Of a stretch of 64,000 bases of DNA, positions 60,855 to 64,000 are shown in pieces. The stretch covers positions 224,001-288,000 of the forward strand of contig JBBRPR010000002.1 of assembly GCA_038227875.1 (NCBI GenBank). The letters run 5' to 3'. Both the position numbers and the translations under genes were made by a program. Each line of letters opens with the position of its first letter. Position 1 is the first letter of the stretch. The notes under the pieces are model-generated. The model saw nothing but the letters and a program-made list of their open reading frames with translations, had not been told where the DNA came from and searched no databases. The DNA is from Planctomycetota bacterium. Lineage in GTDB: Bacteria > Planctomycetota > SZUA-567 > H5-PLA8.

Positions 60855-62000
60855 ATGCTGAAAATCAACATCACCCACCACGACAAGCTCGCCCGTTCCG
60901 GCGTCATCACCACCGACCATGGCACGATCGATACGCCCAGCTTCATGACCGTCGGCACGTTGGGCGCGCCAAAGGGCGTCACCCCCAAGGACGTGCTCGA
61001 GCACGGCGGACAAGTGCTGCTGATGAACGCCTTCCATCTCGCCTGGCGGCCGGGTGAGGAGCGCGTGAAGCGCCTGGGTGGGCTGCATAAGTTCTGCGGC
61101 TGGCCCGGGCCGATTCTCACCGACTCCGGCGGCTTCCAGATCTTCTCGCTGCCCGGTCTGCGCAAAATCACCGACGAAGGTGCGCTCTTCGCCAGCCCGG
61201 TCGACGGCCTGATGCGCCTGTTCTCGCCGGAAGCCGTGGTCGACATTCAATGCGCGCTCGGGCCGGATATCGCGATGGTGCTCGATGAGTGTCCGGCTTT
61301 TCCGTGCACGCCGGCGGAACTCAGCGGCGCTGTCGACCGCAGCGTACGCTGGGCGCAGCGCTCGTACACGCGCTGGAAAGACGTCGCGCCGCCGCACGTC
61401 AATCTCTTCGGCATCGTGCAGGGCGGTTTCAACGAACAGGAACGGCAGCGCTCGCTGGAAGCCACGGCGGCGATCCCCTTCGCGGGGTTGGCGCTCGGCG
61501 GATTCTGCGTCGGCGAAACCATCGAGGACACGCACCGCGGCATCGCCTTTACCGCGCCGAAAATGCCGGCCGAACGGCCGCGCTACCTGATGGGCATGGG
61601 CACGCCGGCCGATATCCTCCACGCGGTCGCGCACGGCATCGATCTCTTCGACTGCACCATCCCGACGCGCAACGGGCGCAACGGGCTGGCGTTCACCTCC
61701 GTCGGCCGCGTGCGCGTGAAGAACACCAAGCACAGCGACGACCCGTCGCCGCTCGATCCCAACTGCAATTGCTATACCTGCACCAATTACGGGCGGGGCT
61801 TCCTCAGGCATTTGTCGCTTGCCCGTGAATTGAACGCGGCTATCTTGGTCTCTCTTCACAACTTGGCCTTCTATTTCAATCTCATGAAAGGAATACGAGA
61901 GGCCATTCGGGAGCAGCGGTTTTCGCAATACAGTTCGGATTTCATGGCGCGCTGGAATGCCGCATCTGAACCCGATGGCGACGAGGCCGACGACGCGTAA
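60855..62000 (+). CDS. tgt: tRNA-guanine(34) transglycosylase
   Basis: TP.FM.VGT, TDSGGFQIFSL, LDEC, GIVQGG, PRYLMGMG, FDC, CxCxxC...HN. Confidence 0.96.
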   Translation: MLKINITHHDKLARSGVITTDHGTIDTPSFMTVGTLGAPKGVTPKDVLEHGGQVLLMNAFHLAWRPGEERVKRLGGLHKFCGWPGPILTDSGGFQIFSLPGLRKITDEGALFASPVDGLMRLFSPEAVVDIQCALGPDIAMVLDECPAFPCTPAELSGAVDRSVRWAQRSYTRWKDVAPPHVNLFGIVQGGFNEQERQRSLEATAAIPFAGLALGGFCVGETIEDTHRGIAFTAPKMPAERPRYLMGMGTPADILHAVAHGIDLFDCTIPTRNGRNGLAFTSVGRVRVKNTKHSDDPSPLDPNCNCYTCTNYGRGFLRHLSLARELNAAILVSLHNLAFYFNLMKGIREAIREQRFSQYSSDFMARWNAASEPDGDEADDA

Positions 62001-62024
62001 CGCATAAAGGATCGACTACAGACC

Positions 62025-62417
62025 GTGGCAGATTCAAACAACACCACCGCAACACAAGGCACACCCAGCCCCGCGACTGGCACCGGAACGGGCACAGGCA
62101 CAGGCGGCGCCGGACAGGGAGCTGGCTCGCCGTTCGATCCAGGCATGCTGCTGATGTTCGGTTCGATGGCGATCTTGTTCTGGCTGTTCATCGTCCGCCC
62201 GGAAAAGAAACGTCAGAAGGAAAAAGAAGCACTCACCTCCTCGCTGAAAAAGAGCGATAAAGTCGTCACGATCTTCGGCATGTACGGCACGATCGTCGAC
62301 ATCGACGGCGAAGACATCACGCTGATGGTCGATCAGAAGAAGGAAGTCAAGATGCGCGTGCGGCGCAGCGCGATCGACCAGGTCCTGGTCGAGGAAACGA
62401 AGGAATCCAGGAAGTGA
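62025..62417 (+). CDS. yajC: Preprotein translocase subunit YajC
   Basis: TM followed by RPEKKRQKE...LKKSDKVVT..GMYGTIV. Confidence 0.95.
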   Translation: MADSNNTTATQGTPSPATGTGTGTGTGGAGQGAGSPFDPGMLLMFGSMAILFWLFIVRPEKKRQKEKEALTSSLKKSDKVVTIFGMYGTIVDIDGEDITLMVDQKKEVKMRVRRSAIDQVLVEETKESRK

Positions 62418-62872
62418 AGCAGTCCGACGCCAAGACTACTGGCCGCGCCATTCCGCTGTTCTCCGCGGTCGCGGCGTTGATGTCGCTGCTGACGGCCGCC
62501 GCTGGGCCGTTCTCGCAGACCGTCAAAGTGGTTCGCGTCGACTCCGCCACGCCGGAAAACCGGACCGGCGACTTCGAGCTGGAAATCAGCGCCATCGATC
62601 TGGCGCCAAAGCCGGAAGACACCTCTTCAAAGCCGAAGCAGCAGACGCATTCGCAGTCCGCGCCGGAGAAGTCCGCGAAGATCGTGCAGCCGCTCAGCGG
62701 CCATTGGGAATCGGCGGCGCAGATCGACCTGCCGGTGGCCGACGTTCCCGCCGCGACGCCGCTGGTCTCACCCACGTGGATCCACGCAAGCAGCACCGAC
62801 GTTCCGAACACTGCAGTTGTCTCCTCGCACCAGGCGCCGATCAAAGCCGGGCGCGCTCCGCCGTACATCTAG
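62414..62872 (+). CDS. Signal-peptide protein with C-terminal RAPP motif; candidate translation-arrest secretion monitor of secD(F)
   Basis: GTG overlaps the yajC stop (GTGA); signal RAIPLFSAVAALMSLLTAAA; ends APIKAGRAPPYI-stop. Confidence 0.75.
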   Translation: MKQSDAKTTGRAIPLFSAVAALMSLLTAAAGPFSQTVKVVRVDSATPENRTGDFELEISAIDLAPKPEDTSSKPKQQTHSQSAPEKSAKIVQPLSGHWESAAQIDLPVADVPAATPLVSPTWIHASSTDVPNTAVVSSHQAPIKAGRAPPYI

Positions 62873-63026
62873 GCTCAACTCCTGCCGCACGAGCCTGGAG
62901 CTCATCCGCGGCGACACTCACACACAAAAATCGGCGGCCATTTGCTGCTGATGTTCGAATTTTGGCTCTGCTGCCGCCGTCCGCCTGTGCTGACGCGGTG
63001 CAGCATTTAGAACGAGGTGACGTCAC

Positions 63027-64000
63027 ATGGAAGGCACTTTCAGCGCGCTGTTGCCTGTTGCGATCGGCATTTTTGCCATCGCCACGGCGCTCTACAGCGG
63101 TATGTCGTACGGCTTCTACCATTTCGGATCGACCCTGCTGGGCCTGGGTTTTCTCTTCGGCCTGTTCCTGATTTTCGCGATCCTGATCCGGGCATCGCGC
63201 GGCTTCTTCAATCGCTTTGCCGGCCGCATCAACTTTGCGCTCTTCCTCATCGCCGTGCTCGGCGCCTACTTCGCCTTCCTCTTTCAAGAAGGCAAGTACC
63301 CGATGGGCATCGACCTCGCCGGCGGAACGGAGCTGATCTACCGACTCGACTACACGCGCGCCAAGGAAAACATTGCGCGCACGAATGAACGGTTGACTGC
63401 CGAACGGGCGAAGGATTCCGAGTCCAAGGAAACCAAGAATCTCTCGTCGCAGATCGCAAATCTGGAGCAGGGCATCAAGACCGCGCCGGAAAAGGCCGCT
63501 GAAGTCGTCCGCCGCCGCATCGATCCGACCGGCACGAAGGGCATTCCCGTCACCACGCTCGGTAGCGCCCGCGAACGCCTGCGCATCCAGTTGCCCAAGG
63601 CCACGCCGCAGGAAGTCGAACGCATCAAGCAGGCGATCCAGACCCGCGGCCGCCTCGCCTTCCACATCGCCACCGACGACCAGACCATTATCCAGCAGGT
63701 CCAGCAGAGCACGACCAAGCCCAAGGTTTCTCCCGACGGCCAGTACGAAGAAAAGATCATCGAGAACAAGAAGACCATCAGCGGCGAAAAGTCCGAAGAA
63801 AAGATTTACGTCAAGCGCGTGCCCGACATGGACGGCTCCCACGTGGCGCTGGCCGTGGCGCGCCCGAGCCACGAAAGTTCGAGCTGGGAAATCGGCTTGA
63901 GCTTCGATGCCACCGGCGGCGTGGAATTCGGTCAGCTCACGCAGCGCAGCATCAAGAAGCGCATGGCCATCGTCCTCGACGACGAAGCCAAGTCCGCGCC
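63027..64000 (+). CDS. secD: Protein translocase subunit SecD (or SecDF fusion), 5' part
   Basis: Manual translation from ATG 63027 (GAGGTG SD): ...MGIDLAGGTELIY...VVRRRIDPTG...RIQLP...G.LAF...MAIVLDD; open to the window end. Confidence 0.93.
   Translation, partial: MEGTFSALLPVAIGIFAIATALYSGMSYGFYHFGSTLLGLGFLFGLFLIFAILIRASRGFFNRFAGRINFALFLIAVLGAYFAFLFQEGKYPMGIDLAGGTELIYRLDYTRAKENIARTNERLTAERAKDSESKETKNLSSQIANLEQGIKTAPEKAAEVVRRRIDPTGTKGIPVTTLGSARERLRIQLPKATPQEVERIKQAIQTRGRLAFHIATDDQTIIQQVQQSTTKPKVSPDGQYEEKIIENKKTISGEKSEEKIYVKRVPDMDGSHVALAVARPSHESSSWEIGLSFDATGGVEFGQLTQRSIKKRMAIVLDDEAKSA

Follow-up and report, generated by a model that had tools for sequence, protein, structure and literature searches.

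Upstream open reading frames (uORFs) of secDF that carry a RAPP or RGPP motif were surveyed by Fujiwara in 2024 in over 30,000 genomes (PMC10987492). The survey looked for small unannotated uORFs of secDF in which an N-terminal signal or transmembrane segment is separated by more than 30 residues from a C-terminal motif that is conserved (PMC10987492). Of the uORFs tested, nine RQH and two orphans, every one stalled B. subtilis ribosomes, and many did so with E. coli ribosomes too (PMC10987492). uDF_RQH_WSZJ01, from the planctomycete class MHYJ01 and with the motif R104APP, stalls E. coli and B. subtilis ribosomes in PURE systems (PMC10987492). Bacterial proteomes, those of Planctomycetota among them, avoid RAPP and RGPP more strongly than most other tetrapeptides; where the two motifs do occur, it is close to the C-terminus of small secretory proteins (PMC12992588). 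Here we analyse a 152-residue uORF that precedes secDF in an uncultured Planctomycetota bacterium, within a stretch of 64,000 nucleotides (nt) that we call the window (contig JBBRPR010000002.1, positions 224,001–288,000 of the forward strand; assembly GCA_038227875.1). Judged from its sequence and those of its relatives, the product of the uORF is probably a ribosome arrest peptide of the RAPP type that belongs to the secretion-monitor class, and the gene lies in a putative tgt-yajC-uORF-secDF operon.

The gene order on the + strand (window 60855–64000) is tgt (PF01702), yajC (PF02699), the 152-residue uORF and secD. The uORF (62414–62872, +) begins at a GTG within the tetranucleotide GTGA, so that its start overlaps the TGA stop of yajC (62025–62417, +; 130 residues; called from PF02699, E 2.2e-23, and the list of open reading frames (ORFs)), and it ends with TAG at 62870–62872 (+). 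Its C-terminus is HQAPIKAGRAPPYI, i.e. KAG-RAPP-YI and then the stop; the candidate arrest motif R147 A148 P149 P150 is encoded at 62852–62863 (+) by the codons CGC GCT CCG CCG. An untranslated spacer of 154 nt (62873–63026, +) leads to secDF, whose ATG lies at 63027 and whose 5′ part (63027–64000, +) continues beyond the window end. A Shine-Dalgarno (SD)-like GAGGTG (63014–63019, +) stands 7 nt before this ATG and overlaps the strandless palindrome GTGACGTCAC (63017–63026). On re-reading, the coordinates that a preliminary description of this DNA had given, its GTGA overlap, the length of 152 residues and the spacer length all proved correct. In the whole genome secDF is a fused gene of 992 residues, and Pfam finds SecDF_P1_head, SecD_1st, Sec_GG and two SecD_SecF_C stretches on its full ORF.

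The N-terminus of the uORF protein carries a localisation signal (residues 1–30; 62414–62503, +) in which K2, K7 and R11 precede the hydrophobic AIPLFSAVAALMSLLTAAA; no other stretch of the protein is strongly hydrophobic (KD15 hydropathy 2.17 at residues 12–26; next best 1.17). The Sec-type signal peptide proposed earlier thus stands as far as the positive n-region and the hydrophobic segment go, and the segment may be either a cleaved signal or an uncleaved anchor. From it to the arrest Arg there are 120 residues. Of 25 family members, 24 likewise have their hydropathy maximum in such an N-terminal segment behind a positive n-region, 98–128 residues before the Arg; in the exception (L006) the top window falls on an internal segment, with 2.21 against 2.20 for the next best. 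Long signal-to-arrest spacers are reported for Sec monitors, and 98–128 residues is within the reported range (PMC10987492). The middle of the protein is of low complexity as previously described, while its supposed Ser/Pro/Ala composition was wrong, residues about 63–88 being rich in K, S, P, Q and T.

All four sequence features of the RQH group (uDF_RQH) are thus found here. The 152-residue ORF is unannotated and without a family match, and a fused secDF follows after 154 nt; hydropathy and a predicted helix at residues 15–33 indicate an N-terminal signal or transmembrane segment; the signal and the motif are more than 30 residues apart; and a C-terminal R/Q/H-[A/G]-P-P is conserved, as detailed below. 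The position of RAPP or RGPP near the stop and the patchy distribution are also alike. Because of these shared features, and because a planctomycete secDF uORF has already been tested, we assign the uORF to an already described kind. It is most likely a further lineage's form of that kind. The earlier view of a lineage-specific monitor overrated the novelty, its kind having been surveyed, another planctomycete secDF uORF included (PMC10987492).

The protein has no match in Pfam (E <= 0.01), NCBIfam or the PDB sequence set, and GC-rich DNA of this sort gives long frames on both strands, for example a 173-residue antisense frame at 62347–62868. One could therefore take the uORF for a chance frame in GC-rich intergenic DNA with a coincidental RAPP. 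The GC fractions by codon position (0.62/0.53/0.84) are those of a translated frame, the third position being far above the second. In the 9.3-Mb assembly of the organism itself, R[AG]PP falls within the last 14 residues of 15 of the 25,700 mechanically called ORFs of at least 100 residues, and only the uORF among these 15 is also 100–250 residues long with an uncharged N-terminal hydrophobic segment. Seven close metagenomic homologs (43–86% identity) were found; six retain K-x-G-RAPP followed by two residues and the stop, and in these six the 30 residues preceding the motif vary. The seventh (P0008, 132 residues) is without the C-terminal part.

Related loci were collected with the SecD N-terminus as bait. 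Of those with DNA upstream, 15 are Planctomycetota genome loci and 11 come from metagenomes, with some duplicates among them (L015, L017 and L064, with no upstream DNA, are outside this count). In each of the 26 loci a single + strand stop-to-stop frame of at least 50 residues has [RHQC][AG]PP no more than 10 residues from the stop. Frames ending in this way make up 26 of 613 on the + strand and 2 of 662 on the minus strand, and the motif-bearing frame sits between yajC and secD wherever both neighbours are readable. Among 17 loci, eight have its start codon overlapping the yajC stop ([AG]TGA), and in the others the start is at most 28 nt away.

A profile built from 24 family members was searched at E <= 0.001 against 1.84 billion cluster representatives (clusters at 50% identity) and returned 66 representatives, with conserved blocks at the protein level. 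Within the last 16 residues RGPP occurs in 45 and RAPP in nine, so that 54 of the 66 carry R[AG]PP, at 1–7 residues from the stop; CGPP occurs in two, TGPP in one and HAPP in one. The tail beyond the motif is 1–4 residues in 56 of these 58 motif-bearing representatives. Three more (P0041, P0054 and P0055) have S-R-P-P-P where R[AG]PP is expected; RPPP is among the query motifs in Supplementary Data 5 of the 2024 survey (PMC10987492). Four representatives seem to be cut short (P0008, P0035, P0060 and P0069), and P0062 ends differently. A single-protein search in 41 relatives gave three weak matches only, and pattern scans of genome and metagenome contigs with an 8-sequence alignment (A1) gave no uORF match. 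Because the motif is conserved across homologs, loci and global representatives, the uORF is, on this comparative evidence, not a chance ORF; coincidence is extremely improbable and already refuted by the conservation data. Conservation of RAPP at orthologous loci had been set beforehand as the test on which the proposal could fail, and a motif of this type was found in all 26 loci ([RHQC][AG]PP) and in most of the representatives (R[AG]PP).

Seven small ORFs that are RAPP-like and signal-bearing were picked out mechanically in the organism's own genome; besides the uORF, none of them looked gene-like by eye, and the others were rejected.

uDF_RQH_WSZJ01 is of the same phylum, likewise precedes secDF, and has a RAPP motif followed by a short tail. 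That peptide has 110 residues whereas most of the uORF family has 128–172; its ends, translated from the published primers, are RAPP plus A-A-L and, at residues 28–34, G-K-G-D-A-A-A, which is without counterpart in the uORF family. Comparison of these primer-derived ends gave no alignment beyond RAPP. A description of the uORF family was not found in the parts of PMC10987492 and PMC12992588 that we consulted, which do not extend to the survey's supplementary list of 11 uDF_RQH groups and orphans. ApdP (Alphaproteobacteria) and ApdA (Actinobacteriota) also have a RAPP arrest motif upstream of secDF; their names are reserved for those other phyla (PMC10987492), and the uORF relatives, all Planctomycetota, are set apart from them by lineage. 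SecM (PF06558) shares the signal peptide, the long spacer, a C-terminal arrest sequence (R-A-G-P) and a downstream Sec gene, but it is proteobacterial and regulates secA rather than secDF, and the uORF has no Pfam SecM match (E <= 0.01). Among look-alikes ranked by a language model the nearest are unnamed planctomycete, Thermodesulfobacteriota and Pseudomonadota clusters, with SecM clusters fifth (0.94), which we treat as a lead only.

What sets the uORF family apart from the described RQH peptides is a set of extra conserved motifs whose distance to the arrest site is fixed. These were seen in an alignment of 62 sequences, comprising the window protein and 61 of the 66 representatives (the five noted above as cut short or ending differently have no C-terminal part and were left out). 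R-x-P-P provides the best conserved residues of the whole alignment, and three further blocks are conserved. Block 1, directly after the hydrophobic segment, reads G-P-[LF]-[AS]-Q-x-L-R-V-x-E (P32 in 58 of 62, Q35 in 45, R at 38 in 42 and E at 41 in 39); in the window it is GPFSQTVKVVRV (residues 31–42; 62504–62539, +). Block 2 is [YF]-x-L-V. Block 3 reads P-R-L-L-K-P-[VL]-x-D-H-W-[ED]-x-A, followed by D-x-P (R at 89 in 37 of 62, W98 in 39, E/D99 in 57 and P112 in 49), and includes the window motif AKIVQPLSGHWESA (residues 88–101; 62675–62716, +). The distance from W98 to the arrest Arg (R147) is 48–49 residues in 45 of the 62 sequences and 46–52 in 56 of them, while the low-complexity stretch from P32 to W98 varies from 48 to 84 residues. 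We have met no earlier description of a mid motif at such a near-fixed distance from the arrest Arg. During a stall, an element some 50 residues from the peptidyl-transferase centre would come to lie just outside the ribosomal exit tunnel.

This arrangement invites comparison with VemP, the monitor of Vibrio secD2F2, which is likewise secreted, upstream of secDF and provided with a long spacer. Release of VemP depends on the far-upstream Arg-85, an adjacent short hydrophobic segment and an (Hphi)xP motif, elements that sit in or near SecY during the stall and tune SecDF-dependent release (PMC11470409). The R-L-L-K-P-[VL] block resembles these VemP cis elements in make-up, as an analogy only; the VemP arrest sequence, HRIxGWKETNAMYVxLNxx, is unrelated and without RAPP. 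By this analogy the family might be a SecDF monitor with a two-part sensor, in which the RAPP stall is combined with a PRLLKP...DHW element that would set release at the ribosome–SecY junction, convergently with VemP, and in which coupling perhaps does not use an SD-masking hairpin. We offer this as a tentative and rather unlikely refinement.

The same blocks bear on a different explanation, namely that the uORF product is a small protein, exported or anchored in the membrane, which has its own function, e.g. as a partner of YajC or SecDF, with R[AG]PP as part of that function or as an unregulated pause. AlphaFold2 (AF2), run with the family alignment, predicts a chain that is mostly unstructured and of low confidence (mean predicted local distance difference test score 57, predicted template modelling score 0.22), with helix 15–33, strands 37–41 and 54–58, and helix 94–101. 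Such disorder is expected for a monitor rather than for a folded protein, and the variable length of the low-complexity middle also speaks against an own function. Three conserved blocks plus D-x-P suit a functional protein, unlike the case of the Streptomyces secDF uORF SLIV_07330, where conserved motifs are reportedly absent ahead of the arrest site (PMC12992588), and tight linkage and frequent translational coupling to yajC suit it too. Yet the best conserved residues are R-x-P-P at 1–4 residues from the stop, a fixed position that is hard to explain except by action at the ribosome, and RAPP and RGPP stall ribosomes of distant species in many contexts (PMC10987492, PMC12992588). A protein with its own function in place of an arrest peptide is in our judgement very unlikely.

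The distribution was surveyed in 62 genomes of the window's class in the GTDB taxonomy; the record titles of the relatives name only metagenome-assembled genomes of 'Planctomycetota bacterium'. The family profile matches 14 of the 16 genomes of the window's GTDB family. In one of the two that it misses (G004) an RGPP-ending uORF is present on inspection; the other (G007) is taken up below. Both genomes of a sister family (f3) have a different-looking ORF of 166 or 214 residues before secD (L087 287–787 and L086 1533–2177), ending LPGDPRGPP[YL]RS, with a hydrophobic N-terminus in L087 and with a gene other than yajC upstream in L086. The family profile gave no match to these f3 ORFs, which could be of independent origin or very divergent homologs. 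Inspected loci of four other families (9, 3, 1 and 2 genomes) have no RAPP-like-ending ORF of at least 45 residues between yajC and secD, and one further family (1 genome) has a LAPP-ending ORF only. Occurrence within the class is thus patchy, like the pattern published for such peptides.

For the arrest-peptide reading the following sequence of events can be proposed. The uORF would be translated, probably coupled to yajC via the GTGA overlap, and its N-terminal signal or anchor, if hydropathy is a guide, would bring the nascent chain to SecYEG. The ribosome would then stall at RAPP, as has been shown for ApdA, ApdP and other RAPP/RGPP uORFs. The published RAPP and RGPP results lead one to expect that a chain with the end G-R-A-P-P-Y-I stalls the ribosome on codons 149/150; this register is that of the ApdA and ApdP structures (PMC10951233), applied to the uORF by analogy. 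Pull from translocation would free the arrest, and the stall would last longer if export, possibly SecDF-driven, were slow. A longer stall would raise secDF expression, an effect shown for one published relative (PMC10987492). Stalling, secretion-linked release and secDF induction are all inferred for the uORF.

Several observations weigh against this reading. Arg is replaced in the family by CGPP in two representatives, by TGPP in one and by HAPP in one. In G007 the C-terminus is disturbed: GRAPRPPPVCS is the end of the signal-bearing frame, and AHGPPG that of an overlapping frame nearer secD. Conservation of two extra motifs at a distance from the arrest site is also compatible with a protein that has its own function. 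Translocation-coupled release is stated to be unaddressed for ApcA, ApdA and ApdP (PMC7897499). None of the sequencing runs listed for the locus is of RNA. Finally, the RNA modelling did not bear out a structure that masks the SD and is opened by the stalled ribosome. The 62840–63060 segment shows no extra stability against shuffles (z -0.14, and 0.02 with the ribosome footprint removed). When the 29 nt surrounding the P-site codon are kept unpaired, the mean unpaired probability of the secD ribosome-binding site (RBS) shifts by no more than 0.09 across 18 loci, and in the window the unpaired fraction moves in the wrong direction, from 0.40 to 0.35. In a sliding-mask control over 16 loci, the arrest site does not stand out in 15: at least three of the 23 other uORF positions cost as much energy to mask, or more. 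The RNA modelling thus gives no support to such a switch, equilibrium folding of GC-rich RNA being a weak test.

Two sequence variants belong beside these points. The apparent frameshift or rearrangement of the uORF C-terminus in G007 lies at 1515–2067 of L018/L085. The CGPP forms make up a sub-lineage (L009 2330–2366, P0016 and P0071, ending PQPPGCGPPA) in which C replaces the 'essential' Arg.

Of the preliminary description, then, the core survives (an uORF of the RAPP-type arrest-peptide kind, secretion-monitor class, with motif, signal, spacing and locus conserved), and the RNA details do not. Folding with and without the RAPP region masked, which it had put forward as a check, gave no gain in predicted secD RBS accessibility. 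The palindrome at the SD, to which it had drawn attention, is at chance level: perfect 10-nt palindromes number 102 in the window, and the secD RBSs of 14 relatives, mostly of the AGGAG type, do not share GTGACGTCAC.

Spacers between uORF and secD are uniformly long (92–333 nt in 18 loci), no stall-responsive structure sequestering the SD is predicted, and within 61900–63300 we found no Rfam element (E <= 1), sigma-70-like promoter or intrinsic terminator. These results are what one would look for if the stall at RAPP is real and secDF is controlled by a route other than SD unmasking, such as a block of Rho loading or termination in the spacer (tnaC-like) or altered mRNA decay. For the Rho route, the spacers are not consistently C-rich and G-poor in the manner of rut sites (C/G 0.48–1.73), and the window spacer, with C/G 1.19, hardly differs from the uORF at 1.22. 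Coupling was tested in one published relative, the Alteromonas member of RQH, where an SD-masking stem-loop is at work (PMC10987492); at the planctomycete locus none is predicted, and the folding test is, as said, a weak one for an SD switch. We consider a non-SD route quite unlikely.

The spacer and the codons at the arrest site were also compared among loci. In a seven-locus alignment (A4), GCGCGCGG is invariant at the A-R-G codons of P-A-R-G-P-P, synonymous positions included; beyond it, the RBS and the start codon little is conserved, and the loci are otherwise divergent. Since this is coding sequence in GC-rich genomes, the invariance was not taken as a sign of structure. Predicted direct pairing between footprint and RBS is appreciable only in L009 and weak in L011 among the 18 loci. 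The PP codons were considered as an anti-SD, CCUCCU in L009 being predicted to pair with the secD AAGGAG (2.6 expected pairs), and this was rejected as a general feature because 16 of the 18 loci have at most 0.15 expected pairs.

If the arrest-peptide reading is right, a planctomycete family rich in members (66 clusters at 50% identity) joins the RAPP/RGPP arrest peptides that guard secDF, and it supports the published view of patchy and repeated recruitment of the motif. For specialists the family is a set of natural variation, with a near-invariant R-x-P-P, a 1–4-residue tail, and rare CGPP, TGPP, HAPP and SRPPP. The fixed 48–49-residue spacing opens the question of whether arrest release is tuned outside the tunnel, and the absence of a predicted SD switch in 18 loci means that the step coupling the stall to secDF is not to be assumed. 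The second motif at its fixed distance and the stall-to-secDF coupling might be the only points of specialist interest.

Some minor features of the loci were noted. The spacer appears to serve as an insertion site in some relatives: that of L062 (2168–2500) is 333 nt long with very stable nested hairpins (minimum free energy -184.5), while its near-twin L063 (2306–2500) has 195 nt, and L010 has at 2326–2500 a long near-perfect hairpin of GAACGAUGAACG-like repeats. Contigs from four DNA runs are short fragments and uninformative; position 63019 shows G>A in a single contig of two runs of one study. Downstream of secDF lies a PP2C-type phosphatase gene (PF13672; G000:C2 ~290288–291124, or L104 3389–4225). 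Canonical SecD has one hydrophobic segment before the periplasmic P1 domain. The SecDF N-terminus here (63027–63300) apparently has three ahead of YPMGIDLAGG, where the P1 domain starts, as judged by eye, and the same three-segment N-terminus is seen by eye in the translations of the relatives.

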